A stretch of DNA of 64,000 nucleotides from Escherichia phage phAPEC8. Of this stretch, positions 25,603 through 41,041 are shown piece after piece; the first letter of the stretch is position 1, and every line of letters starts with the position of its first letter. The position numbers and the translations under genes were made by a program. Below the pieces are notes generated by a model. It saw nothing but the letters and a program-made list of their open reading frames with translations. It did not search any database and had not been told where the DNA came from. The stretch lies in the sequence record NC_020079.1. One strand, 5' to 3'.

Positions 25603-25881
25603 TTAAAATGGTTCGTTAGTCTCCATCATATATTCTGCTTCTAGTTCTTCCATATGCTTTCTAAATTGGAAAGCAATTTCTGCTACAGTTACATTTAAAT
25701 CTTTTTCAAAAACTTCTGTAGAGCCTTCATAAAAACGAATACCGTCAATTAAAAGCCCTCCGTGGTAATCCCAATCACTTTCACGAGAAAGCGGGTTAGG
25801 CTCTTCATAATAGTAATCCACCTCCACGACTAAAGCTTTCCCGTTACGAGCGGTGTATTCAAAATCAAAAGTGTTAATCAT
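25603..25881 (-). CDS. Hypothetical protein
   Basis: 92 aa, start-overlapping the upstream gene. Confidence 0.35.
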   Translation of the reverse strand: MINTFDFEYTARNGKALVVEVDYYYEEPNPLSRESDWDYHGGLLIDGIRFYEGSTEVFEKDLNVTVAEIAFQFRKHMEELEAEYMMETNEPF

Positions 25882-26825
25882 TATAGCTCCTCAAATAAAA
25901 GTCTACGACGCTCATTCAACACATCAATGTGATAATGAGTCCTGACATACTTAGCTAATGCTAATCCTTTCTCCATGCAAACATCGGGAGCACTTAATAA
26001 GTATTCCGTAATATCTTTCCACTCGGAAGGTGTTTCAGCAAAGAATAACAAATCTTTAAACTCTTGTGTATGATAATTCTCACGAGGAGAACAGATCAAA
26101 GGTAAACCCTTAGCACCTGCCTCAAGAATTTTAAGATTGCTTTTTGCATTATTAAACACGTTATCAATCAATGGCGCAAGACTGATTTGATGACCATCGT
26201 AAGATTCCATGTAGTTGGCATATGGTCTTACACCTTCATAAACACAAGTTGGTGCTACATTTTCTCTGATTACAGACCATTCACGACTACTTAAAACTTC
26301 AGAATCCCTACGAAAACCACATATTGTAAGATCTTTACCAAAATCGGGCAAGATAGCCAAGTCTTGTTTATGTGTTTCACTTCCAGCCCAGACTAATGGA
26401 GTTTTGGAGTAGCGATCACGGGTCAACACAAATTGACCTTCATCGTAAGGAAGTCCATTAGGGATTATGTGCACATTATCATTGTATTGTGAAAGTTCAA
26501 CTTGCAAAGCAGGTGTCGTAGTTGTAACGAGATCGCTGTGCTCTAAAAACCATTTTAAATGTTCACGAATACCTGATTCAAAAATACCTTCTAACATGTG
26601 TCCTTTTGGAATAACTAAAGAGTCATCCAAATCCATAACCATTTTAAAGCCTAGGTTTTTAAGGGCTAAAAAGCCCTCTTTACCTTTTGTTGGCACCCCG
26701 TTAAAAACGAAAACGTTGTGTTTAGGTTGTGAAGAGAACTGCCTTGAGTAAGGCAGCACTACTCTATGGAAATCGCAGACACTATAATTGATTCCGTTAC
26801 GATTGTCAAGAATTATTTGTCCCAT
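25881..26825 (-). CDS. GT-B fold glycosyltransferase (group 1-like), paralog 1
   Basis: 314 aa; C-terminal KILEAGAKGLPLICS resembles the group-1 donor-binding motif; paralogous to the next gene. Confidence 0.5.
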   Translation of the reverse strand: MGQIILDNRNGINYSVCDFHRVVLPYSRQFSSQPKHNVFVFNGVPTKGKEGFLALKNLGFKMVMDLDDSLVIPKGHMLEGIFESGIREHLKWFLEHSDLVTTTTPALQVELSQYNDNVHIIPNGLPYDEGQFVLTRDRYSKTPLVWAGSETHKQDLAILPDFGKDLTICGFRRDSEVLSSREWSVIRENVAPTCVYEGVRPYANYMESYDGHQISLAPLIDNVFNNAKSNLKILEAGAKGLPLICSPRENYHTQEFKDLLFFAETPSEWKDITEYLLSAPDVCMEKGLALAKYVRTHYHIDVLNERRRLLFEEL

Positions 26826-26832
26826 ACTTCAC

Positions 26833-27783
26833 CTACAAACTTTCAATAACCTGGCGTCGCAACTCGTTTGCATCTGCCAGATTATAATGTGTTCGAACAT
26901 GTTCAGCCAAGAACAAGCCACGATCTTCCCGATAGTTTGGATTGCGAAGAAGCTTAACAATTTCGTAATGCCATTCTGCTTTATTCTCTGCGTAAGCAAC
27001 AGCGCGAGCATCTACAGGGTTAAAATAAGGTAATACCTTAGAACAAACAATTGGAATACCTTTTGCTCCAGCTTCCAGGATTTTGAGATTACTTTTACAA
27101 TTATTAAAATCGTTATCTACCAAAGGAGCTATAGCAATAGCATGACTTTCGTAAACACTCATGTAATTATCTAAATCTTTTACAGCGGCTTTATATTTGG
27201 CATTTGGTAAATTTCTGCGAATCTTAATCCACTCTTGTCCTGTGATGCTTTGTGATGCTTCATATCCCGCAATAGTAAGAAGTTCATCATCGAAAGTATT
27301 AGAGACTAGTCGTAAATCGGGTTCGTGACTAGCACCGCCAGCCCATACAACAGGGGTACCGGATGAACGATCATTTGACAAAGTGAATTGTCCGCTATCA
27401 AAAGGAAGTGCATTTCGGATCACAACAACATTCCTATTTAAGTGGCGGATCTTATATGCCAAATATTCCGTAGTCACAATAACCACATCAGCAAGCTTAA
27501 CCATAGCTACAATAGCATGAGTGTTTGACTCGTATAGACTTGCTAAATAATGTTCTGGATTGAGTTGGTAGAAATCATCTAAATCTACAACAATCTTAAC
27601 ACCTTGACGTTTCAAAGATAAAACGTATTCTGCACCTTTAGAGTGGATACGGTTAAACACAACAACATCTTTCTTAGGTTGAATATTATTGTTGTTAAAG
27701 GGCATAACAATACGATGATAGTCACAACCGCTATGAGGTTTTGCATCAATTTTTAGTTTAGACCATTTTTTTTTATTTGACAT
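26833..27783 (-). CDS. GT-B fold glycosyltransferase (group 1-like), paralog 2
   Basis: 316 aa; KILEAGAKGIPIVCS; shared CD(F/Y)HR(V/I)V, VWAG, NxxxNxKSNLKILEAGAKG blocks with paralog 1. Confidence 0.5.
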   Translation of the reverse strand: MSNKKKWSKLKIDAKPHSGCDYHRIVMPFNNNNIQPKKDVVVFNRIHSKGAEYVLSLKRQGVKIVVDLDDFYQLNPEHYLASLYESNTHAIVAMVKLADVVIVTTEYLAYKIRHLNRNVVVIRNALPFDSGQFTLSNDRSSGTPVVWAGGASHEPDLRLVSNTFDDELLTIAGYEASQSITGQEWIKIRRNLPNAKYKAAVKDLDNYMSVYESHAIAIAPLVDNDFNNCKSNLKILEAGAKGIPIVCSKVLPYFNPVDARAVAYAENKAEWHYEIVKLLRNPNYREDRGLFLAEHVRTHYNLADANELRRQVIESL

Positions 27784-28456
27784 GTGCTAGTGCCTCCTCA
27801 TAGGAAATTCGGATTTTCCCATTTTTAATATCCTCTAAAGATGCTTTATATTCTTCCCAGTTAATCCCAATAGCAGCTTCTTTCTCTTCTTTTGTCAGAT
27901 TAGCAAAAGGCATAGGATTGTTTCCAAAAACATCGTCTGGGTGGATATAAGCCATGATACGAAGTGGACAAGGTGTTGCCTGAATACCATGATTCAAACC
28001 AGCAGCTTGCAAACGGTGTCCCCATTCAGCATCTTCAAAACCATAACCGTGAGTGTAAGGACGGAAATAACCCATCTTCTCAACAACGGCACGAGAATAC
28101 ATTGCAAATTGACACATTGCAAGTTCCCAGAGAATAACTTCTCCTTTGCTTCCAACAACTTTATCTTTGAAATACTCCGGCATACCAAAGAAATCCCATC
28201 CTCCAGAGACAGCTTGATCTACAAAGTATGTTTCCCATCCCTCCATGACTGGGTAGCAATCGTCGTCAAAAATAAACCAATAATCATAACCTTCTTCATA
28301 AAACTGGTGCATAAGTTCATTCCTGGCATAAGCTACACCTTTACGATCTGGATCGTTGAATACTCGAAAATCTGCACGTGGATCTGTTACAAGGTAGTCT
28401 TTAAGTGGACGGACACCTACAGTGATAACACCCACTCCGATTTTAATATTTTCCAT
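27773..28456 (-). CDS. GT-A fold (family 2-like) glycosyltransferase
   Basis: 227 aa; FIFDDDCYP (DxD) and GYGFEDAEWGHR (GT2-type ED motif). Confidence 0.5.
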   Translation of the reverse strand: MENIKIGVGVITVGVRPLKDYLVTDPRADFRVFNDPDRKGVAYARNELMHQFYEEGYDYWFIFDDDCYPVMEGWETYFVDQAVSGGWDFFGMPEYFKDKVVGSKGEVILWELAMCQFAMYSRAVVEKMGYFRPYTHGYGFEDAEWGHRLQAAGLNHGIQATPCPLRIMAYIHPDDVFGNNPMPFANLTKEEKEAAIGINWEEYKASLEDIKNGKIRISYEEALAHVK

Positions 28457-28464
28457 TTTCTCTC

Positions 28465-29028
28465 CTAAATAGTTTTACTGTGATCATGACAGTGTAATAA
28501 ATGATGTATAGACCGTTGAGGATTTGTTTGACCTAATCTGTAAATGTGAAACAGATACATTCCCCGCATCAATCCTAACCTCTTTCCTTTTTCATGTAAA
28601 GTGCGAGAGAAAATTAAGTCGAATTGGATAGATTTTTCTTCGAAAGGAATTTCATTCCACAATGATTTTCTAAAAAGCAAAAAGAAACCTGCCAGAGGTG
28701 TTCCGAAAGGAACTTCTTCAACATTTACTTTATGATATTCTCTTGCAATCTTAGCATATTCTATATGGTTTAGAATATCGGGATCATCGTTAATTTGGTT
28801 AGAGAAAAGCTGATAACCACTACCTAACCTGTTACAAGTTGCACCTATTACATCAAAAGGCGGGTTTGACATAACAAGCTCTTCAAGCATAGATGGTTGA
28901 TCAGGTAGGAGGAACATTGTATCGGTATCTCTTAAACACACCCAACTATCATCTGGAAGAACGGCAATGGCTTCATTGATAGCCTTGCCGATATTTCCTG
29001 TCAGATAGGGAGTAATATAATAAATCAT
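28465..29028 (-). CDS. Possible small GT-A-like transferase
   Basis: 187 aa; N-terminal beta-strand then DDSWVCLRDTDTMF (D-x-D like); co-operonic with three glycosyltransferases. Confidence 0.3.
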   Translation of the reverse strand: MIYYITPYLTGNIGKAINEAIAVLPDDSWVCLRDTDTMFLLPDQPSMLEELVMSNPPFDVIGATCNRLGSGYQLFSNQINDDPDILNHIEYAKIAREYHKVNVEEVPFGTPLAGFFLLFRKSLWNEIPFEEKSIQFDLIFSRTLHEKGKRLGLMRGMYLFHIYRLGQTNPQRSIHHLLHCHDHSKTI

Positions 29029-29729: not shown

Positions 29730-30251
29730 TTAACTCCCCTTTGGTAGATAGAAACCATGCACTTTATCTCGATAAACAAGACGCATATCACGTTCCCAGT
29801 GTGTCCTTATATTCCGTTTCTTGAAGTATAGAGCACCTTTAGTAACATCTAAAACAGACCGCAATTCAGGAAAATGTTTCTCTAAATAAAGTAAACGCTC
29901 CGCTATTGCTTTTGCTTCCTGCCACTTATCTTTCTCTGTTACGTTAAAAGTTTTCGCATATGAGAATTGCCCTTTCTGGAACAAGACTCCTCTGACTGTG
30001 TTAGGGAAGTAGGTATCATTTCTTCTGTTGATTACCACATTCCCAACGGCATTCATTCCTTTTTTACCCAGACCGCGACCTTCTGCGTAAATTGCACAAG
30101 CTAATAGAATTTTATCATTATATTGCTTTGTACATTTGTGAACTACTTTAGCGGTTTTTACGTTTGCAGCTTCGGCTTTCGCCACAACAGGTGTAAATGT
30201 AAAAGCAGTTAAGGATAGTAACGCAACTGTTACAAAGTTTTTTATCAGCAA
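29730..30251 (-). CDS. SleB/CwlJ-like cell-wall hydrolase with signal peptide
   Basis: 173 aa; signal peptide LLSLTAFTFTPVVAKA; CAIYAEGRG motif; TTG start behind RBS AAGGAGG. Confidence 0.55.
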   Translation of the reverse strand: MLIKNFVTVALLSLTAFTFTPVVAKAEAANVKTAKVVHKCTKQYNDKILLACAIYAEGRGLGKKGMNAVGNVVINRRNDTYFPNTVRGVLFQKGQFSYAKTFNVTEKDKWQEAKAIAERLLYLEKHFPELRSVLDVTKGALYFKKRNIRTHWERDMRLVYRDKVHGFYLPKGS

Positions 30252-30283: not shown

Positions 30284-30332
30284 AGTATAACACGATAGAG
30301 GCTTTATTGCAAGAGGGGGATTTCTCCCCCTC
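30284..30332 (-). promoter_or_regulatory. Hairpin plus sigma70-like promoter (TTGCAA-N17-TATACT) upstream of the hydrolase gene
   Basis: GAGGGGGA-TTTC-TCCCCCTC perfect stem right after terD stop, followed by -35/-10 hexamers. Confidence 0.4.
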
Positions 30333-30350: not shown

Positions 30351-30953
30351 TTATGGACATTCATACCATTCTTTTTTACCACCAAAGGCCATCACCACAT
30401 CGCAAATATCCAGACCAGCTTTACCTACACCATATGCTTTCAGCTTCCATTCCCCATCTTCACGAACCAGCGAAGCCACGTGGCAGATTGTGTTGCCAGC
30501 TACTTCAGGAGCCAGGAAGTCAAAATCCAGAATTTCCACATTGCGCTCGGAGTCGAAGATTTTAAGCATACCTTCAGAAGCATGACCAAAACGTTTCAGA
30601 CCTGTATCATCATCAATGGTCAGAACAAAGGCAATCTCTTGTGCATCAGGAGAGATTTTAGCCAGAGTAATATCAATCTGCTCCATGCTGCCAGTTCCAT
30701 CACGAACATCGTCACCAGCGAAGGTAGAACGTTCAGGATCAAACTTGTTAGCATAGCAAACCAGATGACGTGCAGACAGCATTTCAGGATTGCCAGCGGC
30801 ATTATGACGACAAACCAGTGCACTTACATCCAGATCCAGTTTAGAATCAGATTTCCAAGAGAATTCCAGGCGCAGTTCTTTCAGAGCCGGAGCAACTTTC
30901 TTCAGGGAAATTTTTTCGCTAGAACCTTTTTTCAGGGAAATTTTATCAGTCAT
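30351..30953 (-). CDS. terD: TerD-family stress protein
   Basis: 200 aa; block-wise match to E. coli TerD: ISLKKG..ISLKK, DLDVSALVC, GDDVRDGTGS, FVLTIDD, GEWKLKAYGVG. Confidence 0.8.
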   Translation of the reverse strand: MTDKISLKKGSSEKISLKKVAPALKELRLEFSWKSDSKLDLDVSALVCRHNAAGNPEMLSARHLVCYANKFDPERSTFAGDDVRDGTGSMEQIDITLAKISPDAQEIAFVLTIDDDTGLKRFGHASEGMLKIFDSERNVEILDFDFLAPEVAGNTICHVASLVREDGEWKLKAYGVGKAGLDICDVVMAFGGKKEWYECP

Positions 30954-30968
30954 CTTTTGTCTCCTCTA

Positions 30969-31238
30969 TTATTTAAGTGTAATACCAGTTACAGTCAATT
31001 CTACTTCCAAAAGCTTAGATGTGTTTTGGATTGATACTAATTGTGCATGATGGTTTAGTTCTACAGCAGAATAATCATTTTCCCCATCATCTACTTTTAA
31101 ATAAACAATGATTTCACTAAGGTCTAAACCATTTTCGTCAAATGCATTTTCATAGACGAAAGTATCTCCTACATCCAAATCTTTAATGGTAAGGCATCGT
31201 TTATTTACTTTTTGCTCATCAATTTCGAAGTTTAACAC
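30969..31238 (-). CDS. Small protein, paralog B of a duplicated pair
   Basis: 89 aa; shares DLDVG(D/A)TF(V/M)Y...Y(E/D)...GLD and C-terminal T(G/N)ITLK with ORF 32260-32604. Confidence 0.4.
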   Translation of the reverse strand: MLNFEIDEQKVNKRCLTIKDLDVGDTFVYENAFDENGLDLSEIIVYLKVDDGENDYSAVELNHHAQLVSIQNTSKLLEVELTVTGITLK

Positions 31239-31467
31239 TTCTTCCTCCTAATGTTATCTCCGGTTTGTATATACGAAGAATTATAGCATTTTCATTTTCT
31301 TTGTCAACCCATTCTTCATAATCGGGCCATACATGAATCTCTACTCTACTTACAATATCTTCCATCCGCACAATCCCAATGAAATACTCTTTGAGACTGC
31401 GCATAATGAAAGCTTCTCTCTCGCGCCAATAATTTTCTACGACTTGAGAGGCAAGCTCGTCGATCAT
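31219..31467 (-). CDS. Hypothetical protein
   Basis: 82 aa ORF, coupled. Confidence 0.3.
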   Translation of the reverse strand: MIDELASQVVENYWREREAFIMRSLKEYFIGIVRMEDIVSRVEIHVWPDYEEWVDKENENAIILRIYKPEITLGGRSVKLRN

Positions 31468-32258
31468 TTTTTAGCACCTACTTTAACAACCCACTCTCCG
31501 AACTCTTCAGATAAGAGTTTGTCATAAAGCTCTGAATCTGTCAAGTCTAAATCTTTAATGCCAATGAAACCAACATTATCATAAGCATTTGCCAGTTCTT
31601 TCAGGAAGCCAAACTTCTCATTACCAACGCCAACCATGAACCAATAAATAGGTTTATTCTTATTCTCTTCGATAAGACGACGAACAGCACTAGGATCACC
31701 ATTCTCACCATCCGTTTGGAAGAATACAACACCAGGGGTAACGTCAGCACCTGGTTCAGATACAGCTACAACCTTTTCACGCTCTACAGATACTGTTTCA
31801 GTTTTACCAAGCAGACGATTAAAGAAGCCTTTCTTTGGAGCCTCCTCTTGTACCACTTGTTTAGTGGTAATATATTTGGTAACAGTGCCAAAATACTCGT
31901 CGTAGATATCTGCCATTACAGGGGCGTAGTTTGTTCCACCTCCGATACGAACATTACGCATACATTTACCAACATAATCATCGTAAACGTCTGCTGTTGC
32001 TGGGGTAAGCTCTTGAGAACTCGTATTAAAGGCCCACATATCAATTTGTTCATTATCGTCGAACAGCATACCAAAAGGAAGCAGTTTACCTACAAAATCA
32101 CTCACTACCCCACTAGCATATAGACCATGCATACTACCAGAAATATCTAGAGCACATGCTACACGAAGAACAATCTTACCTTCATTCAGGTTCTTATTCT
32201 TTTTCAGAGAGAAAGCAAGGTTTTCTTGACGTTTTTTCAGGCTGATTTTCTCGGACAT
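31464..32258 (-). CDS. von Willebrand factor A domain protein (TerY-like)
   Basis: 264 aa; MIDAS elements DISGSM (DxSxS), GGGT, FFQTDGENGD; N-terminus MSEKISLKK..SLKK echoes the TerD N-terminus. Confidence 0.7.
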   Translation of the reverse strand: MSEKISLKKRQENLAFSLKKNKNLNEGKIVLRVACALDISGSMHGLYASGVVSDFVGKLLPFGMLFDDNEQIDMWAFNTSSQELTPATADVYDDYVGKCMRNVRIGGGTNYAPVMADIYDEYFGTVTKYITTKQVVQEEAPKKGFFNRLLGKTETVSVEREKVVAVSEPGADVTPGVVFFQTDGENGDPSAVRRLIEENKNKPIYWFMVGVGNEKFGFLKELANAYDNVGFIGIKDLDLTDSELYDKLLSEEFGEWVVKVGAKK

Positions 32259-32259
32259 A

Positions 32260-32604
32260 TTATTTCTCCTTCTTAAGTGTAATGTTGGTAACTTCTAAAT
32301 CTACTTCCACCATCTTTGTATCTGGTGGGATGCAATGAGTATAGCCTCGTTGTGCTAGTGATCCATTAATACAGATCGCACTGTTTGTGGAATTTTTAAT
32401 GAACACCAAGTTACGGTAGGTATCCAACCCTGCGTCTTCATAGGCATCATAATACATGAATGTGGCCCCTACGTCAAGATCTTCGAAAGCAATAGGTAAA
32501 TCCTGACTTTTTTCTTCTTGAATATTGAATCTAAACACGCATACCTCCTCTACCAATTTTGAAGCCCAAATCGTAAGCTTCCTTAGTGATCTTTTGTAAC
32601 TCAC
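32260..32604 (-). CDS. Small protein, paralog A of a duplicated pair (true start probably internal)
   Basis: 114 aa as tracked, overlapping the upstream gene by about 70 nt; paralogous core begins near FRFNIQEE. Confidence 0.4.
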   Translation of the reverse strand: MSYKRSLRKLTIWASKLVEEVCVFRFNIQEEKSQDLPIAFEDLDVGATFMYYDAYEDAGLDTYRNLVFIKNSTNSAICINGSLAQRGYTHCIPPDTKMVEVDLEVTNITLKKEK

Positions 32605-33094
32605 TTATAGGAAGTGTTACAAGAGGATCATCTTCTTCAATTTCCATCTTGTCATCTTCTGTTTCAATGAGAGTATTATGCACTTTGTGATAAGGGTTGT
32701 CAACACGTTTAAACTTATTCTTTTCTGTGCTGAAAAAACAATCTGGATCTTCTTCACCATCACCCCAACCTTGGTTAGGATCTCCGTCAGATTGTTCTGT
32801 AGGGATTTCACCTGTAAAGTACTCTTCCAGCACCATAGCGATACCGTCCCTTGGATTTGAGGAATGCATCAAATCACAAACCTTACTCCAATCCATAGCC
32901 CATTCAAATCGTTCACGAACACCATTTTCATCCTCCTTTCCAGAGAAAACACAACCATAACTATCATAGTTGCCATACATCTCTTCAATAACAACACCGT
33001 CCTTCAAAAGAAAGAGATAACAAGGTGATCCGTCGAAAGAAGTAGAAAGGGCAGCTTTGCCCGATTCTTTGCACAAAAAGCTAAAACAACCCAT
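32531..33094 (-). CDS. Hypothetical acidic protein
   Basis: 187 aa ORF. Confidence 0.35.
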   Translation of the reverse strand: MGCFSFLCKESGKAALSTSFDGSPCYLFLLKDGVVIEEMYGNYDSYGCVFSGKEDENGVRERFEWAMDWSKVCDLMHSSNPRDGIAMVLEEYFTGEIPTEQSDGDPNQGWGDGEEDPDCFFSTEKNKFKRVDNPYHKVHNTLIETEDDKMEIEEDDPLVTLPISELQKITKEAYDLGFKIGRGGMRV

Positions 33095-33492
33095 TACAAA
33101 CCCTCCTTCAGATTATCAAGAGCTACAGTGGTTTCACAAAATTCTCCATAAGCTTTATGATGTTCCAGAAAAGCTTCGGGTCCACCCCAGTCATTATCTT
33201 GTGTATTCCAGCCATCAATAAAAGCATCTTCAATGATTGTGATCAGTTCCTGTCGAGTCAACGTAATGGTATCAGGTTTCTGCGTAGTTTCCACACGGAA
33301 CCCTGGTTCTTCATAAAAACCTTTAGTTACAATGGATTCTAACTCTTCTGCATCACAGAGGAAGTAGCCACAAAGATAACACCCACCGTCATCATCTTTC
33401 ATTACTTCATAAACTTCACCACTTGCTAACTTGATGAAAAGAGTAGGGTCTGTTACTGTAAGTTTTAAAAGAATACCTGTTGGATTATACAT
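33094..33492 (-). CDS. Hypothetical protein
   Basis: 132 aa ORF; start-overlaps the upstream stop. Confidence 0.35.
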   Translation of the reverse strand: MYNPTGILLKLTVTDPTLFIKLASGEVYEVMKDDDGGCYLCGYFLCDAEELESIVTKGFYEEPGFRVETTQKPDTITLTRQELITIIEDAFIDGWNTQDNDWGGPEAFLEHHKAYGEFCETTVALDNLKEGL

Positions 33493-33658
33493 CTTCTTCC
33501 TCCTCTAAGATATGGAACCCGTAATTACAATAATCCTGAAAGGTTTCGTGTGCAAGATCTTCTATATCTTCTTGAGACATATCATCTTCAATTTCGATAT
33601 CTACAACCTCATTGCATCCACACCAAGCCGTTTCAATATTCACTCGTAATATTTTCAT
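33485..33658 (-). CDS. Small acidic protein (57 aa, not in ORF track)
   Basis: ATG overlaps upstream TAA (TAATG) and its stop overlaps the next ATG; MKILRVNIETAWCGCNEVVDIEIEDD... Confidence 0.3.
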   Translation of the reverse strand: MKILRVNIETAWCGCNEVVDIEIEDDMSQEDIEDLAHETFQDYCNYGFHILEEEEDV

Positions 33659-33858
33659 TACTCCTCCTCCTCCTCATTGAAGTCAATATCTGCAAGGAGT
33701 TCGAATTTACGGAAGTTACGACAACCTTCATAAATATAACAATCACGACAAACTGCTAGAACACTTGGGGGATATATGCCTCCCATCGGTGCGAATCGTT
33801 TTTCGTCATCATAACGGACACCAATGTCTTCATCAATTATATAGATACGGATTCTCAT
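33658..33858 (-). CDS. Small Cys-containing protein
   Basis: 66 aa; CRDCYIYEGC; acidic C-terminus; coupled to telA stop. Confidence 0.35.
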   Translation of the reverse strand: MRIRIYIIDEDIGVRYDDEKRFAPMGGIYPPSVLAVCRDCYIYEGCRNFRKFELLADIDFNEEEEE

Positions 33859-34967
33859 TTACCAAGCCCTCGTTTCACAGCAGCTACCATCCCGTCTTCC
33901 AGAGATTGAACTTCATTAATATAATCAACACGAGCAGCACGGGCTTCCGTATTGATGCGGTTAGTTTCTTCCAACATCTTAACCAAGTTTTCCTGATCGT
34001 GACGCAGAGTTTCAATATCCAACACTTGACGGTTAGCCAGTGCTGCTGCTTCGATCTGATTCTGTGTGGCAAGATCGCTACCCAGTTTAATTGCCAGGTT
34101 AAATTCATCAAGAACGTTATTCTGCGTCTCTGCTGCTTTCATTTGACGTAAGCTCTCGATATACATTGAGAAGTTAGCAGAGTAAGCAGGAATAACATTA
34201 TTTACTATGTTACGCGCAGATCGCATTAAGCTTGCAGAAACTTTTTGCATACCTTGTACACGCGGTCCCATTTGGACACACAGTAGGCGCAATGCTTTTA
34301 AATCTGCAATACGAATCTCCAGAAGATCCAAAGTATCTCGGATCACTTGTCGCTGTTCTACTGCATCTTCTGGAAGAGCAGCCAAAGCTTGTTCTTCTTT
34401 TTCATAGGTTGCTGTTAGAAGCTGCATATCTCGGTTCAAACTTGCAGCATATTGTCCAATAGCTTGATGTAGCTTTTCAAGATATACCAAGGAATCTTCT
34501 TCTTTGCGAATATCCATTTGAAGGTTCTTTACCAACTCTTCAATACGGTTATTAACATTATCAAACTCCCCAAACAGATCTTCTTTCATACCCATAACTT
34601 TTTTAATGAGTTTAGTAATACCCTTGCTTTGTTTAATAGAGTTTGGATCAAGTTGTTTTGCCTGTTTAATCAAAGCTGTGAGTCGTTCACTCATCTGATC
34701 GCCTTGATTACTACGTTGATGTTTTAATACCTCGGCATTCAAGGAACGCAAGGTTGTTCCTGCCTCTGCCCCAATCTCTTCAATCTCTTGTCGGGTCATA
34801 GAAGGCAAAACTGGAACTTCTTGCGGTGCCGCTGGTGCATAAACAGGACTGGCATCTAACACGCTTGGAGCGAATACAGATTTACTTGCATCGGTTGTTG
34901 CAGCAAATACGCTCATTTCAGGCTTCTTCTGACCACCAGTAGCTGCTTTTAAAAATGGACTTGTCAT
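33855..34967 (-). CDS. telA: TelA/KlaA-like toxic-anion-resistance family protein
   Basis: 370 aa, largely helical/coiled-coil, size and composition of the TelA family; sits in a Ter gene neighbourhood. Confidence 0.6.
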   Translation of the reverse strand: MTSPFLKAATGGQKKPEMSVFAATTDASKSVFAPSVLDASPVYAPAAPQEVPVLPSMTRQEIEEIGAEAGTTLRSLNAEVLKHQRSNQGDQMSERLTALIKQAKQLDPNSIKQSKGITKLIKKVMGMKEDLFGEFDNVNNRIEELVKNLQMDIRKEEDSLVYLEKLHQAIGQYAASLNRDMQLLTATYEKEEQALAALPEDAVEQRQVIRDTLDLLEIRIADLKALRLLCVQMGPRVQGMQKVSASLMRSARNIVNNVIPAYSANFSMYIESLRQMKAAETQNNVLDEFNLAIKLGSDLATQNQIEAAALANRQVLDIETLRHDQENLVKMLEETNRINTEARAARVDYINEVQSLEDGMVAAVKRGLGK

Positions 34968-35554
34968 TCTTCATTCTCCTCTTCTGCATCTCTTATATAT
35001 GGTGAAACACCGTACTCTTTAGCTACTTTAACCCAATCGTCCCATTTATACAACCATAATTTTCCTTCGGTCCCTTCTTTATCTGATTTCAACCACATAT
35101 TAGGTTGCTTACCTGGGTACATGCGATTAGGTTTACGATTATAACCTCTAACACATCTTGTCGCAAACCCATCTACCAGAACAAGAACATATTTATATTC
35201 GTGGTTCAACGGCTCTTTGGAAGTGGCTTTAGGATTAGCCCCTAATTCTGCTGCCAGTTTTTGCCAATGAGCACCGTGCCTACTAAACTTACCCATACAA
35301 CCATCAATAGCATGAGCAATTTCGTGCTTCATTGTGTCCACGATCATATCTCTTGTGGAGTTCTTATGCAAGTGCCAATTTACAACAACAATTTTATCTC
35401 GGTAGTTGCACCAACCGAAAGAGTTATTCACTTTGTTTCTAACACAAGCTTTATATCCTGCTTCACGTAACATGTTGTAGTAAACAGGAAAATCTTCTTT
35501 TATTTCCTGCATCACTTCCCACCACAAGAGTTGCAAGTCTCTCTCGGTATGCAT
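34964..35554 (-). CDS. SprT-like zinc metallopeptidase
   Basis: 196 aa; HEIAHAI (HExxH) followed by GKFSRHGAHW. Confidence 0.5.
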   Translation of the reverse strand: MHTERDLQLLWWEVMQEIKEDFPVYYNMLREAGYKACVRNKVNNSFGWCNYRDKIVVVNWHLHKNSTRDMIVDTMKHEIAHAIDGCMGKFSRHGAHWQKLAAELGANPKATSKEPLNHEYKYVLVLVDGFATRCVRGYNRKPNRMYPGKQPNMWLKSDKEGTEGKLWLYKWDDWVKVAKEYGVSPYIRDAEEENEE

Positions 35555-35557
35555 AAC

Positions 35558-36151
35558 TTACACCTTAAAAGCGAAATGCGTGGTCGTGGCTTCAAAATCA
35601 GGGCCAGATAAACTTGCACTGAAATCTGAAATATTTGTAATTAAAAAGCTTTTATGCATACCTAACACAGCCACGCTTTCAATATCTTCTACTAACATTT
35701 CAATCATGTTAGAAACATGGCTGAACGTATAGTTTTGTTTTTTGATGGTGTAGAAAGAAAGACTCCCACCTGCTGTATAAGATACCTCTTCAAAATCTTT
35801 AATCGTATATTGTGTACCATCAGTAAAGAAAATGGTAGCTTTATTAGTAGCACGTTTCTTGTTTTTTGGTCCTTTTTTACGTTTACTGCGAGTAGGCAAA
35901 CCGTTTGGGAACACCGTAGCTACAAATTCTTCAGGGGAAACCTCCTTACCGAAATCATAATCGTAAGAAACAGCGTCTATACACTCGTCGTCTTCATTTT
36001 TAAAATAATGAAAATAGGGCCAATTTGAGAGATTATCGAGCATCTTATGCGCATCCACAACAGAGAACGTATCCCTCAAAGCACGTGTGATTTGCAAAGC
36101 ATTAGGCAAACTTTTAACACCTGTAATGGAAGTACGAATAGAAATTGTCAT
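35558..36151 (-). CDS. Hypothetical protein
   Basis: 197 aa ORF. Confidence 0.35.
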   Translation of the reverse strand: MTISIRTSITGVKSLPNALQITRALRDTFSVVDAHKMLDNLSNWPYFHYFKNEDDECIDAVSYDYDFGKEVSPEEFVATVFPNGLPTRSKRKKGPKNKKRATNKATIFFTDGTQYTIKDFEEVSYTAGGSLSFYTIKKQNYTFSHVSNMIEMLVEDIESVAVLGMHKSFLITNISDFSASLSGPDFEATTTHFAFKV

Positions 36152-36165
36152 TGTTTTTCTCCTTA

Positions 36166-36603
36166 TTAACGTCGCTTGCTACGAGATGAACTCTTTTTAC
36201 TTAAAGGGCTATTGTAAGATTTACGAGTTGTATAGCTACTATTTGTTTTAAAAGTTTGTCTCGGCTTTTCATAAGTTTTTATCTCTTGTTTAGGCTTACC
36301 ATAAAAATTAGTTTTCGGTTTAGGTGTATTATAATGCTTATTAATAATCGTTCTGTTATCGTTATAATCCCCACTGCTACGATTACTACCACCACTCATC
36401 ATATGCCCTAACAACATACCTGTAGCAAACTCACCAACACCGCTACTACTAGAACCGCCACCATTGTTGATAATAGTTGTATCTCCGTCAGATCCTTGTT
36501 GAGCGTATTGTTGAGGAGGTTGTTGGTATTGTGCAGGATTTGTTTCATCCTCGCAAGCTGTTAAAAAGATACAACCAATTAAAATCAGGGCTAGTTTTTT
36601 CAT
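36166..36603 (-). CDS. Lipoprotein with Gly/Ser-rich region
   Basis: Start at ATG behind GAGGAAAG; signal MKKLALILIGCIFLTAC (lipobox LTAC); Q/G/S-rich linker. Confidence 0.5.
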   Translation of the reverse strand: MKKLALILIGCIFLTACEDETNPAQYQQPPQQYAQQGSDGDTTIINNGGGSSSSGVGEFATGMLLGHMMSGGSNRSSGDYNDNRTIINKHYNTPKPKTNFYGKPKQEIKTYEKPRQTFKTNSSYTTRKSYNSPLSKKSSSRSKRR

Positions 36604-36790
36604 ATTTGCTTTCCTCATTTTGACTATTAATACATCTGTGTTTGAAATCTCCAGAGAAGCAATAAAGTTGCTCTCCATCTCGGTATAAACTCACTTTACT
36701 GCCGTTGATTACGCTTGTCAATACAAAAATTACAACAAACAACCCTATTGCAAAACAAATATTTTCAAACACAACCAACAAGTATTTCAT
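36545..36790 (-). CDS. Small membrane protein
   Basis: 81 aa; hydrophobic N-terminus LLVVFENICFAIGLFVVIFVL. Confidence 0.3.
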   Translation of the reverse strand: MKYLLVVFENICFAIGLFVVIFVLTSVINGSKVSLYRDGEQLYCFSGDFKHRCINSQNEESKYEKTSPDFNWLYLFNSLRG

Positions 36791-37137
36791 TTTAAAAATA
36801 CCTCATCATCAGTCTCATTATCCCAGAAGAACAAATCCCAACCATTCGGATCATTCCATTTGGCTGCTGGAGAAGTCCATATTTGTTCGATATCAATATT
36901 CAAAACTTCACCGTTTCGTTTTGAAACAGCTTTAGTTAATTCCCAACGAGATACAGGCTCTACTTCCCCTGAACCACTCCCACAACAAGCTACCACGTTA
37001 GGAGGCAAATTAATTGGATCTTTGGTCACGATCATAACGCTTACCCCAGGGTAAACTTTTGAAAGATAATCTAAAACGTAATCCACATCACCAGATAAAT
37101 CCCAAACAAGTTCTTGAATTTCATCAAAATTATTCAT
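36787..37137 (-). CDS. Hypothetical protein
   Basis: 116 aa ORF. Confidence 0.35.
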   Translation of the reverse strand: MNNFDEIQELVWDLSGDVDYVLDYLSKVYPGVSVMIVTKDPINLPPNVVACCGSGSGEVEPVSRWELTKAVSKRNGEVLNIDIEQIWTSPAAKWNDPNGWDLFFWDNETDDEVFLK

Positions 37138-37179
37138 AAGTCTCTCCTATAAAATAGCCTCCCGAAGGAGGCTCATCTA

Positions 37180-38154
37180 TTAAACAGCAGCTTCTTCTTT
37201 TTCAGGGAAGATAAAGCTTGCAATAACACCAAGAGCTAATGTGCCTAGAACAATCATCAGACTTACGTTAGGGGAAATATCATGCGGGAGGAATGACCAC
37301 TTGGCATGAAGTGTTTCACCGAACGGGTGATACATAAGTTTAGCACCGACAAATACCAGAACCACAGCAACAGCTTTCTCTAAGTGAACCAGATATTTCA
37401 CAGCCACACTTAACACAAAGAAAAGTGCACGTAAACCAAGAACAGCCATCAGCATTGCAGAATAAACTAGCAGAGGTTCTTGTGTCACACCGATCACAGC
37501 CGGAACTGAATCAAAAGAGAAGACAATATCTGTAAGCTCAATAACAAACACACAAAGAAGAGCAGGAGTTGCATATTTAATACCATTCTTAATGGTGATG
37601 AACTTTTCACCATCTAGTGCATTGTGCACAGGCAGAACTTTACCTACTAAACGAACAGCCCAATGCTTAGAGTAATCAATATCCTCTTCTTCGTCACCAC
37701 CTTTGATGATAGCCACGGCAGACCAAGCTACAATCAAACCGAACAACACTTGGACCGACCAATGAAGGTTAAACAAAGCGGTCCCTGCTGCAACAAAAAT
37801 ACCTCGGAAGACAATGGCTCCTGCAATCCCCCAAAGTAAAATCTTATGTTGGAGATGTGTGCTCTTAATTCCAAAGCTTGCAAAAATTGCCATGAACACC
37901 ATCAAGTTATCTACAGAAAGACTCTTTTCCAACACATAGCCACTTAGGAAAAGCGCGGCAAACTCTTTACCATGTTCTACCCAAATGAATGCGTAATATC
38001 CTAAAGCTAAAGCAATCCAAAAAACAGACCAAAGCAAAGCAGATTTAATTCCAATTTCTTTATTCTCTTTATGACCAAAGAAATCGATACCAATAGACAA
38101 TGCTAAAATACCAACCAAAACAACTACATCAATAATGGGGAAACCAAGTTGCAT
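37180..38154 (-). CDS. terC: TerC-family integral membrane protein
   Basis: 324 aa; multiple TM helices; EKSLSVDN motif characteristic of TerC. Confidence 0.75.
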   Translation of the reverse strand: MQLGFPIIDVVVLVGILALSIGIDFFGHKENKEIGIKSALLWSVFWIALALGYYAFIWVEHGKEFAALFLSGYVLEKSLSVDNLMVFMAIFASFGIKSTHLQHKILLWGIAGAIVFRGIFVAAGTALFNLHWSVQVLFGLIVAWSAVAIIKGGDEEEDIDYSKHWAVRLVGKVLPVHNALDGEKFITIKNGIKYATPALLCVFVIELTDIVFSFDSVPAVIGVTQEPLLVYSAMLMAVLGLRALFFVLSVAVKYLVHLEKAVAVVLVFVGAKLMYHPFGETLHAKWSFLPHDISPNVSLMIVLGTLALGVIASFIFPEKEEAAV

Positions 38155-38173
38155 TATTTTCTCCTTTCTCTTT

Positions 38174-38232
38174 GCGGGGAACCACTCCCCGCCTCATGTG
38201 ATACATCTTACTCTATTCTAAAACTTTGTCAA
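38174..38232 (-). promoter_or_regulatory. Early-type promoter plus 5' hairpin cassette driving terC
   Basis: - strand reads TTGACA-N16-TAAGAT-gtatcacat-GGCGGGGA-gtggt-TCCCCGC-aaagagaaaGGAGaaaataATG; same architecture as the 60-64 kb cassettes. Confidence 0.55.
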
Positions 38233-38235
38233 CAC

Positions 38236-38457
38236 TTATTTTGAAGAACTTGAGGAAAAGATCCCACGTAGTACAGCCATGATAAATGCCACACACACCA
38301 CAGTCCAGAAGGTGACAGGAACAGTGATATCTGTGTGACCCATCATTTCAACAACGTAGTTATAAGCCAGCAGCAGAAGCCATGCTGGAATCATACTAAT
38401 CAGAAAAGCAATAACAAACACAATAATCACTGCAAGAATACCTGCTAAAACGCCCAT
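38236..38457 (-). CDS. Small two-helix membrane protein
   Basis: 73 aa, strongly hydrophobic. Confidence 0.4.
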   Translation of the reverse strand: MGVLAGILAVIIVFVIAFLISMIPAWLLLLAYNYVVEMMGHTDITVPVTFWTVVCVAFIMAVLRGIFSSSSSK

Positions 38458-38470
38458 AATATTTCTCCTC

Positions 38471-38944
38471 TTAAAGTTTATAAATAGTCACATCGTGACC
38501 TGTTTTTACTAAAGTTTCTTCAATCATCACTTGGATGATAGCCCAATTACCTCCAGCATGTCCAGCGCCAATCATAGGTAAGCCGATCTTACATTTTTGG
38601 TCACGGAGAAGCAAATCGTTAGCCATAGCTATTAGTGCATCGTAAAGTGCATCATAGTCCAACTGACGACCTTTAGCATTGTATCCGTAACGGTATTGCC
38701 CGTATAGATTATATACCAAAGGGTCTGATTGTTCGTCTGGCACTCCTAAACTAAAACAACCTAGTTTACTTTGATCACCAGCCATTGTGTCTAAGTCTGC
38801 TGCATATGCGTAAGGAAATGCTCGTTTGATTTGTGGGGCAATACCTGCCCCCATATTACACATACAGTTGCAACAATGAGCAATAACAGTTACTTCACCT
38901 GCTTTAGCGGCATCAATAAGATTACCTGTTTTCATTTTAAGCAT
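38471..38944 (-). CDS. Macro domain protein (ADP-ribose binding/processing)
   Basis: Start at ATG behind AAGGAG; VIAHCCNCMCNMGAGIAPQIKRAFP and IGLPMIGAGHAGGNW parallel the two macro-domain glycine-rich loops. Confidence 0.55.
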   Translation of the reverse strand: MLKMKTGNLIDAAKAGEVTVIAHCCNCMCNMGAGIAPQIKRAFPYAYAADLDTMAGDQSKLGCFSLGVPDEQSDPLVYNLYGQYRYGYNAKGRQLDYDALYDALIAMANDLLLRDQKCKIGLPMIGAGHAGGNWAIIQVMIEETLVKTGHDVTIYKL

Positions 38945-38957
38945 TTTTAGCTCCTTA

Positions 38958-39785
38958 TTACAGAATGTGTTGTTTTGTGTAACGATCCAAGAATTCAAAG
39001 TTTTCAGCATACTTTGAAATTCGGTTGTAACCTTCTCCCAAGCATCCAAAGAAAAGTTGCTCTACATAGTAATGTGGCAATTGGCTAAGAATGATTTTGA
39101 AGTCTTCATGATTTTGGCCCATAAGATACTTAATAGGACGAACAAGACACTGTGCATCACGTTCTTCATTAATCATTTTAACAAACGCTTCCGGTGTATT
39201 AATGTAGTTAAAATTCAGTTTAGCTTCGGTATCTGCTTGATTACCTTCATATTTTGCAAAATACAGGAAGTAAACATCATTTTTAACTTGATTTTCATTA
39301 AGGATCTCAATCAGTTTGTCTTCATGCGTTCCAGTGATATTTACATCATCAATGAATACAAGCTTCTTATCACCCCAGAATTCTTTGTTACAGTAGAATG
39401 TATCCCCATCAATAAGTTTCTTACGACTAGCTTTATCCAAGAAACCATAATCGTTGATATAGCTAACTTTACGATGAATAATGTCCAGTTCTGCTGAACG
39501 ACCTTGATCATATTGTGATTGCAACATATTAAAGTAATTAATAAAATGATCTGTCATCATTGTTGCAGCATTATGCACATGGTTGTAAGGAGAAGGAATG
39601 ATAACAAATTGTTCCCCAATATGTTTCATTGCCACTTGAGCAAAAAACTGAAGTGCCAATTCTTTACCCATACGACGCGCGGCTTGGTTACTACCAAATT
39701 TCAATTTTGAATAATCTTGGATATCAAAAGTAGCAGTTTCCAGGTCATCAAATTTATTTGCAAAAATTTGAGTTTGATTACGCAT
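38958..39785 (-). CDS. Phosphoribosyltransferase (type I PRTase fold) domain protein
   Basis: 275 aa; KLVFIDDVNITGTHEDK matches the PRPP-binding motif (hydrophobic-DD-x-x-TG-T). Confidence 0.55.
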   Translation of the reverse strand: MRNQTQIFANKFDDLETATFDIQDYSKLKFGSNQAARRMGKELALQFFAQVAMKHIGEQFVIIPSPYNHVHNAATMMTDHFINYFNMLQSQYDQGRSAELDIIHRKVSYINDYGFLDKASRKKLIDGDTFYCNKEFWGDKKLVFIDDVNITGTHEDKLIEILNENQVKNDVYFLYFAKYEGNQADTEAKLNFNYINTPEAFVKMINEERDAQCLVRPIKYLMGQNHEDFKIILSQLPHYYVEQLFFGCLGEGYNRISKYAENFEFLDRYTKQHIL

Positions 39786-40434
39786 TTACAATTTCTCCTC
39801 TTTTAAGTTTCTCTAGTAAGTCGTTAGGGTTCTTAATATGACAGAAGTTAAATCCTAAGTCAACACATTTTCCATCATATTCTTCACTATCGCCTACGTG
39901 CAATACTTCGTGCCCTAACAGAGGGATCGGAGAATACGTGAGCGTGCGAGCAAAGAATCGCGGATCTGGTTTACAAAGTAAAGCTTCATCCGAGAAATGG
40001 GTGAACTCAAAACAATTCCAACTATCAAACTTACAAGCACGACGCAGGATATCCCCTGATATAAAGTTGGTATTGCTCTTAATACTCAAATCATAACGTC
40101 CCGAAAGATACAGCAAGTACATCGGCAGATCCACGGCTACGTGTGGTGGAAACTTAAGGAACCACTGTTCACACTCGAAACGAAGCTTTGCAGACTTCCA
40201 AGGTGTTATCCCAAGTTCAGAACCAAGTCTTTCCCAGGCGTATGCTGCACACTCGGCTTTGCCTTGAAGTGCTGCATTATCCAGTTCCTTTTTGATCTTC
40301 TTATAAGCTGCTCTTGCTTCCACTTCCGTAATATCTCCATATTTTGCGATAGTCCAGGCTCGCATGTCTGCGTAATTGGAGTTTGCTGTGATCAGTGTGT
40401 TCCATACATCAAAAGAGATATGTTTAATAGTCAT
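39778..40434 (-). CDS. HAD-superfamily hydrolase/phosphatase-like protein
   Basis: 218 aa; N-terminal ISFDVWNTLI (nucleophile Asp motif I variant) and HVGDSEEYD (motif IV-like). Confidence 0.45.
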   Translation of the reverse strand: MTIKHISFDVWNTLITANSNYADMRAWTIAKYGDITEVEARAAYKKIKKELDNAALQGKAECAAYAWERLGSELGITPWKSAKLRFECEQWFLKFPPHVAVDLPMYLLYLSGRYDLSIKSNTNFISGDILRRACKFDSWNCFEFTHFSDEALLCKPDPRFFARTLTYSPIPLLGHEVLHVGDSEEYDGKCVDLGFNFCHIKNPNDLLEKLKRGEIVNA

Positions 40435-40435
40435 A

Positions 40436-41041
40436 TTAAGCCCACCATGCGTCTAAGTTAAGATTACTGTCCACTACCACTTGTTCTATGTGGTAGCCTT
40501 TTATCTGTATCCCACTGTTCAAGAGCATATCATACGCTTCATTGAAACGCAACTTATCTTCTGCGGAATATAAGCGAGCATTATAAAATCGGTAATCAAT
40601 TTCTTCAGCATTAGAAGAAATACGGAAGAAGTTTGTTTCTACTTCGGGATCACTTGCTGAAGTCTTAATGTGAACTTCTCCGTAATTTTCTTTACTTAGA
40701 TCCATGAAAAGAACACAGGCAACATGTTTAAACATTCGTTCCAGTTTGTAACGAACAACATTGAAACCTGCATTCTCAAGTTTTTCTACACACTGCAACA
40801 TTAAAGTAGTGTCGAGATCGCTTTGATACTTTGTTAACATACGATCACGTTGAGACTTTGTATCCCGATGTAAATCAATTGTTGTGCATTTGGCACCAAT
40901 AATCTTAGCTGCTTTCATCAACTCTTCAGAACTAACGTTAGATAAAGTAAGATGAAAGTGGGCTTTCCACACTTTTTTAGCAGGGACACCAAAAGATTTA
41001 TCCCCACTATTCGGCATGTTGACTACTACACTATGTTGCAT
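40436..41041 (-). CDS. Hypothetical protein co-operonic with HAD/PRTase/macro genes
   Basis: 201 aa; no confident motif. Confidence 0.35.
   Translation of the reverse strand: MQHSVVVNMPNSGDKSFGVPAKKVWKAHFHLTLSNVSSEELMKAAKIIGAKCTTIDLHRDTKSQRDRMLTKYQSDLDTTLMLQCVEKLENAGFNVVRYKLERMFKHVACVLFMDLSKENYGEVHIKTSASDPEVETNFFRISSNAEEIDYRFYNARLYSAEDKLRFNEAYDMLLNSGIQIKGYHIEQVVVDSNLNLDAWWA

Follow-up and report, generated by a model that had tools for sequence, protein, structure and literature searches.

A compact-type Ter gene set with a phosphoribosyltransferase/HAD pair in Escherichia phage phAPEC8: extent, classification and putative function

Escherichia phage phAPEC8 (NC_020079.1) carries a locus of Ter-type genes, which we analysed within a 64-kb stretch of its genome (the window, whose positions serve as coordinates throughout). 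Open reading frames (ORFs) were taken from a six-frame list, and domains were called by Pfam scans, NCBIfam, PHROG, PADLOC and Rfam. Genes run on the - strand without a break across 30351-34967, where the original prediction had placed a TerD, a vWA protein and a TelA. This placement, strand included, is upheld by significant matches to PF02342, PF10138 and PF05816; the three proteins score 70-100 bits above the Pfam gathering scores, which excludes chance. The co-directional run that had been described is likewise found, and it is tightly packed: from the SprT-like gene (34964-35554) through TerD, neighbouring genes overlap by 1-20 nt or lie 1-15 nt apart, and a GGAG or AGGAG Shine-Dalgarno (SD) sequence precedes almost all of them. 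The limits initially drawn, however, enclose only part of the block. Beyond 30351-34967, the locus reaches to ~41 kb on the - strand and takes in TerC, a pair of genes for a phosphoribosyltransferase (PRTase) of the PRTase_3 family and a HAD hydrolase (38958-40434), and a DarG-like macro domain, of which TerC and the PRTase_3/HAD pair belong to the block. The four core genes TerC, TelA, vWA and TerD are spread across ~7.8 kb with 12 ORFs in between (Table 1). We regard the locus as almost certainly the version of a compact Ter core (TerC, TelA, a stand-alone vWA and one TerD) found in Phapecoctavirus, the phAPEC8-like genus of the subfamily Stephanstirmvirinae, joined by a PRTase_3/HAD pair and possibly by the macro domain.

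Table 1. Features of the Ter locus and its surroundings in the phAPEC8 window
Feature	Position	Strand	Match or motif	Remarks
TerD-domain protein, 200 aa	30351-30953	-	PF02342, E 3.2e-28, 175/187 profile positions	cytoplasmic beta-sandwich
Stand-alone TerF-C/YcbR-type vWA, 264 aa	31464-32258	-	PF10138 'vWA found in TerF C terminus', E 2.1e-37	
TelA, 370 aa	33855-34967	-	PF05816, E 3.2e-33, 315/332 positions; phrog_5890 'tellurite resistance'	
TerC/Alx-family integral membrane protein, 324 aa	37180-38154	-	PF03741, E 3e-40	
ComF-like phosphoribosyltransferase PRTase_3, 275 aa	38958-39785	-	PF15610, E 1.3e-41, full length	Ter-linked PRTase family
HAD-superfamily hydrolase, 218 aa	39778-40434	-	phrog_14393 'hydrolase', E 3e-117	8-nt overlap with PRTase start
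Macro-domain protein, DarG-like or Poa1p-like, 157 aa	38471-38944	-	PF01661, E 1.3e-4	from ATG at 38944
201-aa protein	40436-41041	-	two PADLOC 'AbiEi' models, full length, E 5e-13	head of HAD-PRTase-macro run
Hydrophobic small membrane protein, 73 aa	38236-38457	-	phrog_16065	upstream of TerC
116-aa protein	36787-37137	-	phrog_27498	directly downstream of TerC
Predicted lipoprotein	36166-36603	-	lipobox LTAC (MKKLALILIGCIFLTAC)	start as annotated in SKA64
197-aa protein	35558-36151	-	no Pfam match	
SprT-like zinc metalloprotease, 196 aa	34964-35554	-	PF10263, E 4.2e-9; HEIAH motif	
Three overlapping small ORFs, 132, 57 and 66 aa	33094-33858	-	PHROG families without assigned function	between TelA and 187-aa gene
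187-aa protein	32531-33094	-	314 detected relatives, none with a Pfam domain	widespread uncharacterised phage family
92-aa protein	32260-32538	-	phrog_11278, E 3.5e-50, from residue 24 of longer ORF	GTG start with SD
82-aa protein	31219-31467	-	phrog_22387; no Pfam match	Phapecoctavirus-specific; contains the promoter of the 89-aa gene and TerD
89-aa protein	30969-31238	-	phrog_11278, E 7e-45	missing at this position in phi92
Sigma-70 promoter	31280-31307	-	TTGACA-16-TATAAT with extended TG; perfect consensus	35 nt upstream of the 89-aa gene and TerD
Promoter-like site	32675-32703	-	TTGACA-17-CATAAT, 11/12	inside 187-aa gene, upstream of the 92-aa gene and vWA
GC-rich hairpin	30315-30330	-	GGGGGAGAAATCCCCC	just past TerD stop; direct sequence reading
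Intrinsic-terminator-like hairpin	37156-37173	-	AGCCTCC-TTCG-GGAGGCT with T-rich tail	7 nt past TerC stop
SleB-type cell-wall hydrolase	29730-30251	-	N-terminal signal-peptide-like segment	directly downstream of TerD
Four consecutive glycosyltransferase genes	25881-29028	-	two GT1-like, one GT2-like, one further GT	downstream of Ter/SleB
NrdD, 604 aa	41728-43542	-		complete
472-aa ORF	43643-45061	-	no similarity to NrdD	'class III ribonucleotide reductase' in SKA64

The TerD protein aligns over its full length with the solved Klebsiella pneumoniae TerD (2KXT, E 1.5e-15) and also with 3IBZ. It retains the DLD motif and the GD of the Ca2+ loop, but this loop reads GDDVRDGTGSMEQ where the canonical sequence is GDNRTGEGDGDDE (the acidic-loop consensus used was GDN(R/L)TG.G.GDDE). 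The TerD of phage phi92, a Justusliebigvirus, has a nearly identical loop (GEDVRDGVGQMEQ), whereas the canonical form GDN.TG..G.DDE is intact in the TerDs of Klebsiella phage FBKp34 (phiKp34) and of the compact-operon phages CcrColossus, Rhizobium phage RHph_TM3_3_6 and phiPsa374. Because the loop is degenerate in the window protein, its binding of Ca2+ is uncertain.

The vWA protein had been described as a TerY-like MIDAS protein, a description of which the MIDAS part stands and the TerY part does not. Six distant phage homologs, aligned at 28-68% identity, all keep the MIDAS residues (D38-x-S40-G41-S42, T109 and T182-D183-G184) unchanged, and the site is intact. By type, the protein belongs with the vWA of the TerF C terminus: PF10138 matches strongly, the generic VWA profile PF00092 stays below its cut-off (E 0.0037), and no TerY-P partners were found. 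It is 28% identical to residues 182-408, the C-terminal half, of plasmid TerF, and 40% identical (E 1e-54) to a stand-alone vWA of a Caballeronia plasmid, with which it shares a KKGFF insert that is missing from TerF. The TerY-P triad, credited to Gao et al. in 2020, is said to act against phages through a TerY vWA protein, a PP2C phosphatase and a Ser/Thr kinase; a vWA/MIDAS protein is what the window has in common with it, but this protein is TerF-type, and there is no phosphatase or kinase in the annotated 28 kb. In PADLOC, neither TerY-P nor any other defence model matches the vWA or the other core proteins.

TelA has no transmembrane segment; its N-terminal ~55 residues are predicted to be disordered, followed by long helices. 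In the AlphaFold2 (AF2) model, which has a predicted local distance difference test (pLDDT) score of 69, these span residues 127-197, 203-311 and 319-367 (70, 109 and 49 residues). A sequence search of the PDB with TelA and the vWA protein gave no match, and a Foldseek search of the PDB with the TelA model returned long helical bundles of a generic kind (best E 4e-3, TM score at most 0.39). With such matches, no mechanistic analogy can be claimed, be it to PspA/ESCRT-III, to BAR domains or to alpha-pore-forming toxins, the resemblances that were considered. In sequence, TelA and its plasmid counterpart in the compact operon share 28% identity (E 3e-34).

TerC is encoded on the strand of TelA, 2.2 kb further upstream, and phi92 and FBKp34 preserve this linkage. 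The protein shares 48-50% identity with plasmid TerC/Alx proteins, carries the LSVDN and FDSVPA motifs and scores 319 bits against the 246-bit cut-off of TIGR03718, the TerC/Alx 'metal homeostasis' subfamily. No yybP-ykoY riboswitch or other Rfam family reaches its gathering score anywhere in the 64-kb window.

Further upstream, the PRTase_3 and HAD genes form a pair. PRTase_3 occurs in 155 phage records, in lineages that match those of the Ter-core carriers, and usually adjoins a HAD hydrolase. Apart from its PHROG family, the HAD protein matches profiles below their cut-offs (PF00702, E 4e-4; TIGR02252, E 2.4e-8; YjjG-type, E 3.8e-5). Across whole genomes, PRTase_3 and HAD co-occur with the Ter core in at least five lineages, namely Stephanstirmvirinae, the Rhizobium, Brevundimonas and Caulobacter phages, and Xanthomonas XaC1; in the lineages other than Stephanstirmvirinae, tens of kilobases often separate the pair and the core. 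This genome-level co-occurrence supports a functional link. According to the summary of Anantharaman et al. 2012 given in PMC7824862, a Ter-associated PRTase and a HAD phosphoesterase constitute a nucleoside-like-metabolite module, and the window encodes both of these enzymes. An ATP-grasp ligase and an HpcH-type C-C lyase are found neither among the Pfam matches of 35558-41041 nor in the annotation of the SKA64 GenBank record. The idea that the phage PRTase and HAD are orthologs of the plasmid ter-linked PRTase and its neighbour gene was rejected, as only the phosphoribosyl pyrophosphate (PRPP) loop can be aligned.

The macro protein is matched across its macro part by the PADLOC DarG model (E 4.3e-10) and, below cut-off, by the NCBIfam DarG model (E 5.5e-9); phi92 gp185 ('Tk.4-like'), at the equivalent position, is also a macro protein (E 2e-7). 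It is similar to the macro half of the antitoxin DarG (the ADP-ribosyl glycohydrolase), and it could be a counter to ADP-ribosylating defences instead of a part of the Ter system.

Gene families such as these are known above all from enterobacterial plasmids and genomic islands, and the block might accordingly be host or plasmid DNA in the assembly, as the original prediction had allowed for, or a recently captured and non-functional passenger. We consider this exceedingly improbable. A nucleotide search of 5,426 complete E. coli genomes found neither the block nor the TerC gene, which shows that the block is not host contamination. Its GC content is flat throughout and the same as in the flanks, and its proteins are only 28-50% identical to their plasmid homologs. 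By megablast, it is matched with at least 80% coverage and 95-99% identity in 63 phage records, all of them ~150-kb Phapecoctavirus-type myophages, and its relatives with 60-90% identity are Justusliebigvirus (phi92-like) and Klebsiella phages; altogether, the block is present in over 100 independent phage genomes, which belong to two genera. The closest relatives of TelA among 5.8 billion proteins belong, where their source can be assigned, to phages or phage-sized contigs, and no close bacterial donor was found in this search, which gave only relatives that are at least 44% identical. Finally, the ratio of nonsynonymous to synonymous substitution rates (dN/dS) of the Ter genes against their phi92 orthologs is 0.09-0.26 (0.13 for TerD) at dS >1, which indicates that they are under purifying selection. 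The genome search, the flat composition and the dN/dS values led us to discard host contamination and a prophage origin.

A phage-encoded set of Ter type in a virulent phage, as first proposed, is thus borne out by its conservation in 63 phage records and by purifying selection; for a Phapecoctavirus isolate, a virulent lifestyle, the lack of lysogeny genes and 'tellurite resistance' among the annotated genes have been described (PMC13096147). The accompanying notion that such sets are normally bacterial or plasmid-borne has to be given up. TelA is present in 221 phage records and the window-type vWA in 211, across several unrelated lytic lineages; the window-type TerD is present in 144. Phage-borne sets have been published (PMC7824862, PMC8386662, PMC9796965, PMC11256456).

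One of the closest known systems is a compact operon with the single order TelA-vWA-DUF475/TerC-TerD, found in CcrColossus (gp222-219), Rhizobium phage RHph_TM3_3_6, phiPsa374 (gp015-011, with a short TerC) and the conjugative plasmid p2 of Caballeronia grimmiae. Like the window, these operons encode four co-directional families with a stand-alone MIDAS vWA, one TerD and no TerB, and the Caballeronia proteins are 40% (vWA), 28% (TelA) and 28% (TerD) identical to those of the window. The arrangement differs: the compact operon is contiguous, whereas the order in the window is TerC...TelA...vWA...TerD, with the 12 intervening ORFs and a terminator after TerC. The membrane protein differs too, being a 324-aa Alx-type TerC upstream of the other genes in the window and a DUF475 or short TerC protein between vWA and TerD in the compact operon.

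Within the subfamily, phi92 gp172-187 include orthologs of TerD (81% identical), TelA (79%), TerC (71%), vWA (68%) and the PRTase (65%). As in the window, both phi92 and FBKp34 (gp124-142) have the HAD-PRTase pair and an adjacent SleB hydrolase, and phi92 also has the macro domain. The window departs from these sister genera in the extra 82-aa and 89-aa proteins between vWA and TerD and in the SprT-like protease that overlaps the start of TelA; FBKp34, in turn, has two TerDs, a rearranged order and the HAD-PRTase pair downstream. In Stephanstirmvirinae, insertion of lineage-specific ORFs has separated the four core genes and their order varies between genera, but the gene set is kept in all three.

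The R478-type plasmid locus terZABCDEF, accompanied by terWXY and biosynthetic genes and examined on an Enterobacter roggenkampii IncF plasmid, encodes TerZ, TerA, TerB, TerC, TerD and TerE, the TerD-vWA fusion TerF, TerW, an ATP-grasp protein, a PRTase, StiP and HpcH. It resembles the phage set in TerC (48% identical), in a TerD-domain protein, in the vWA domain of TerF (28%), and in having a PRTase and metabolite enzymes nearby. It differs in that the phages lack TerB, the paralogs TerZ/A/E, TerW, an ATP-grasp protein, an HpcH-type lyase and StiP; they encode one TerD only and a vWA that is without a TerD domain and unfused, while their TelA is missing from the plasmid locus and their PRTase belongs to a different family. 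A tblastn search with plasmid TerB found no Stephanstirmvirinae genome at E <=1e-3, and none is annotated in the 28 kb around the block. TerB belongs to the minimal terBCDE set, and because it is missing, the locus is not a terZABCDEF operon. In the comparison of gene order with plasmid ter operons, suggested by the original prediction, the window agrees in content, though in a loosened organization, with the compact Caballeronia operon and differs from terZABCDEF (no TerB, a single TerD). As judged from gene content and sequence, the phage set belongs to the compact-operon class and not to the R478 class.

The Ter systems of jumbo phages (Iyer, Anantharaman, Krishnan, Burroughs, Aravind 2021; PMC7824862) share with the window a PRTase and HAD, ascribed to 'signal biosynthesis', and TerD, TerC, TerF-vWA and TelA. 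The authors extend these systems to 'certain other related smaller tailed phages' and propose a role in superinfection exclusion. The window differs in stemming from a 150-kb, non-jumbo coliphage, and its macro domain and interspersed ORFs lie outside that description.

The locus neighbours genes for DNA polymerase, a helicase, a methyltransferase and ribonucleotide reductase, and it contains signals that would suit the transcription machinery of the host. The promoter at 31280-31307 is the sole perfect sigma-70 match in the window, in which 0.07 would be expected by chance, and a promoter or promoter-like site directly precedes TerD in phi92 and FBKp34 as well. The hexamers and spacing of the site at 32675-32703 recur identically at the orthologous place of phi92 (10915-10943 of the phi92 stretch compared), despite dS >1. 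Transcription by host RNA polymerase, early in infection, is likely. The hairpin past TerD is the probable end of the transcription unit; because its tail is T-poor, its terminator function is one that we infer, and a canonical terminator follows phi92 TerD at the equivalent place.

What might such a set do for a lytic phage? Host takeover or manipulation of the stress response, as put forward at the outset, is plausible as a putative role. More specifically, we tentatively favour, by analogy with plasmid systems and well short of certainty, a role in protecting the membrane of the infected cell and in excluding competitors. In this scenario, host RNA polymerase would transcribe the Ter genes from the sigma-70-type promoters in the early/replication-gene arm, and the soluble proteins TerD, vWA and TelA would assemble with TerC on the cytoplasmic face of the inner membrane into a predicted complex that depends on divalent metals (Ca2+, Mn2+ or Zn2+). 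From the literature on its family, TerC would be the membrane anchor and ion-handling component, TelA a sub-membrane, membrane-peripheral helical protein, and the vWA (via its MIDAS) and TerD metal-dependent interaction modules. The PRTase and HAD, possibly with the macro domain, may produce or modify a nucleoside-like ligand of (phospho)ribosyl type. The complex would stabilize membrane integrity and ion homeostasis, reproduce the phenotypes of plasmid ter genes for the benefit of the phage, and so shield the infected cell from superinfecting competitors and membrane insults until burst. The R478 ter genes, for instance, inhibit phages and make cells resistant to pore-forming colicins (Whelan 1995, cited through PMC12054061 and PMC8386662), and deletion of terC in K. 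pneumoniae lowers resistance to phage, Zn and Mn (PMC12054061).

Several points weigh against this role. TerB, which the plasmid system requires, is missing from these phages; TerD has lost most acidic residues of its Ca2+ loop (GDDVRDGTGSMEQ); the TelA model, only moderately confident, found no structural neighbour that is informative; and the hairpin after TerC puts this gene in a transcription unit separate from TelA-vWA-TerD. The core proteins match no PADLOC defence model. We found no experiment on any phage Ter gene, and the studies of phiPsa374 (PMC9796965) and of P. syringae phages (PMC11256456) state that the function is unknown.

By the main rival explanation, the locus is an auxiliary module for host fitness under metal or oxidative stress. 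TerC would export Mn2+/Zn2+ or metalate secreted enzymes, and TerD, vWA and TelA would buffer metal or envelope stress, so that the metabolism of the cell and the metal enzymes of the phage keep running until lysis, without competitors being targeted. The score of TerC above the cut-off of the TerC/Alx 'metal homeostasis' subfamily is in line with this, as is the loss of the Mn2+ riboswitch that controls bacterial alx, without which TerC would be made regardless of metal status. Moreover, terC of K. pneumoniae gives resistance to Zn(II) and Mn(II), Zn induces the ter operon (PMC12054061), the genes of the anaerobic ribonucleotide reductase, NrdD and NrdG, are next to the locus, and the phage literature classes the genes as auxiliary metabolic or stress-tolerance genes (PMC11256456). 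Yet metal stress has little time to matter when the lytic cycle takes only tens of minutes, the travelling of TelA, vWA and TerD with TerC/DUF475 in many phages is left unexplained, and full tellurite resistance has been judged unlikely for incomplete sets (PMC9796965, on phiPsa374), TerB being missing here. We regard a fitness module of this kind as rather unlikely.

Less likely still, and ranked by us below metal and stress homeostasis, is a function in counter-defence or the control of lysis, to which the surroundings of the block give rise: a secreted SleB-type hydrolase adjoins it in all three Stephanstirmvirinae genera despite the rearrangements, and a lipoprotein and the DarG-like macro domain, a candidate counter-defence enzyme, lie in the neighbourhood. 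Here, the Ter complex would guard the inner membrane against depolarizing abortive-infection effectors, and likewise against colicins and the holins or ejection proteins of superinfecting phages. In addition, or as an alternative, it would in Stephanstirmvirinae be wired to the SleB hydrolase and the lipoprotein for the timing of lysis, keeping the membrane energized so that this hydrolase and the lysis system do not fire prematurely, with a ligand from PRTase_3, HAD and macro domain as a switch. Protection against pore-forming colicins by plasmid ter genes, as relayed in PMC12054061 and PMC8386662, would fit such a guard. However, the Caulobacter, Rhizobium and Pseudomonas phages with a compact core do not show the SleB adjacency, no anti-defence family matches the core proteins, and the argument is purely contextual. 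We regard this explanation as improbable.

The presence of a Ter module in these phages is already known, both from GenBank annotations in the genus and from a published component list and hypothesis. The SKA64 record annotates TerD, a TerF-like vWA, TelA, TerC, a phosphoribosyltransferase and a HAD hydrolase; phi92 gp172, gp173 and gp178 were flagged as TerD/tellurite-resistance genes in 2015 (PMC4690881), and an equivalent cluster has been reported in the sister phage phiKp34 (PMC8386662). What we add is the corrected type of the vWA protein, the full extent of the locus, its assignment to the compact-operon class and the result that the small ORFs do not belong to the Ter set. Ter determinants occur widely among pathogens, and the question of their mechanism is 30 years old. 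The phage versions are minimal, strongly conserved and carried by lytic phages for which E. coli K-12 MG1655, a strain without its own ter operon, is a plating host, so that tuntematon, anhysbys and ukendt offer a clean genetic system. Such a system could show the function of the TelA-vWA-TerC-TerD core and whether the PRTase/HAD pair supplies its ligand.

The ORFs interspersed among the core genes show a different distribution. The 89-aa and 92-aa proteins are paralogs (35% identity, E 1e-13), of which phi92 has only the copy on the vWA side: the 92-aa protein, directly upstream of vWA, is the ortholog of phi92 gp174 (65% identical). The two paralogs stand directly upstream of TerD and vWA, respectively, and a strong sigma-70-like promoter precedes each of them. 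We considered whether the small ORFs could be conserved Ter accessories, and rejected this since phrog_11278 is confined to Stephanstirmvirinae and they are missing from the compact operons of other phages. Where phiPsa374, CcrColossus, the Rhizobium phage and FBKp34 encode small proteins next to TelA or vWA, these bear no relation to those of the window, and across the phage loci compared, no conserved partner upstream of TelA was found. As judged by this distribution, the interspersed small ORFs are lineage-specific phage genes and not Ter components.

The same holds for the 187-aa protein as a candidate Ter component, which was dismissed since its relatives in other phage contigs sit among replication or unrelated genes without Ter. 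Its family has the invariant motifs MGCxSxxC, GNYDSYG and DPNQGWG, and its AF2 model (pLDDT 89) found no match in a fold search of the PDB. Of the three small ORFs at 33094-33858, which overlap by 1-8 nt, the 57-aa one has a weak match to DUF7167. The stop of the SprT-like gene and the start of TelA share 4 nt. This gene is a Phapecoctavirus-specific insertion; phi92 has no gene between gp179 and TelA. The 197-aa protein is related in its C-terminal half to gp179, encoded upstream of phi92 TelA (41% over 98 aa, E 3e-13). The lipoprotein, encoded between TerC and TelA, has a low-complexity tail rich in Ser, Gly, Asn and Lys, and gp180, with a predicted signal peptide, takes the equivalent place in phi92; phage lipoproteins are often superinfection-exclusion factors. 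The position of the 116-aa protein corresponds to that of FBKp34 gp125, with which it shares the homologous segment VVACCG(S/T)G(S/A)GEV.

At the upstream end of the locus, it is doubtful that the 201-aa protein is a member of the module. It has no match in Pfam or the PDB, the latter searched also with a profile, and phi92 lacks it at the equivalent position. The invariant residues of its family are H28, H30, T32, TTIDL, DRMLTKY, H124-x-K126 and RFYN; an assignment as 2H phosphoesterase from its HLTL and HIKT motifs found no support, the second motif being H-x-K-T and the profile search of the PDB empty.

In the wider window, neither tRNA genes nor Rfam families were found. The adjacency of SleB to the Ter block recurs in phi92 (gp170) and FBKp34 (gp136), though the Ter order differs. 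The glycosyltransferase cluster beyond it is conserved in phi92 gp163-166, and its products may modify the cell surface or DNA. A split NrdD was considered for the 472-aa ORF, which lies in a stretch of raised GC content (0.427 at 44-46 kb), and rejected, as NrdD (604 aa) is complete and the ORF bears no relation to it. The NrdD of FBKp34 has an insertion of ~300 aa after the LTNC motif and an N-terminal extension. Five records with other host names, MG065650, MG065689 and MG065656 ('Campylobacter phage'), OP562383 ('Acinetobacter phage ABPW7') and OR584014 ('Pseudomonas phage PsgM04F'), are 90-100% identical here to E. coli Phapecoctavirus or Justusliebigvirus; probably, their non-enterobacterial host labels are mistaken, or contaminating coliforms were the source of the phages. 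The sign of the GC skew flips at ~18 kb and ~52 kb, where gene blocks switch between the + and - strands, and the 34-kb - strand arm for replication and nucleotide metabolism has the Ter locus at its centre.

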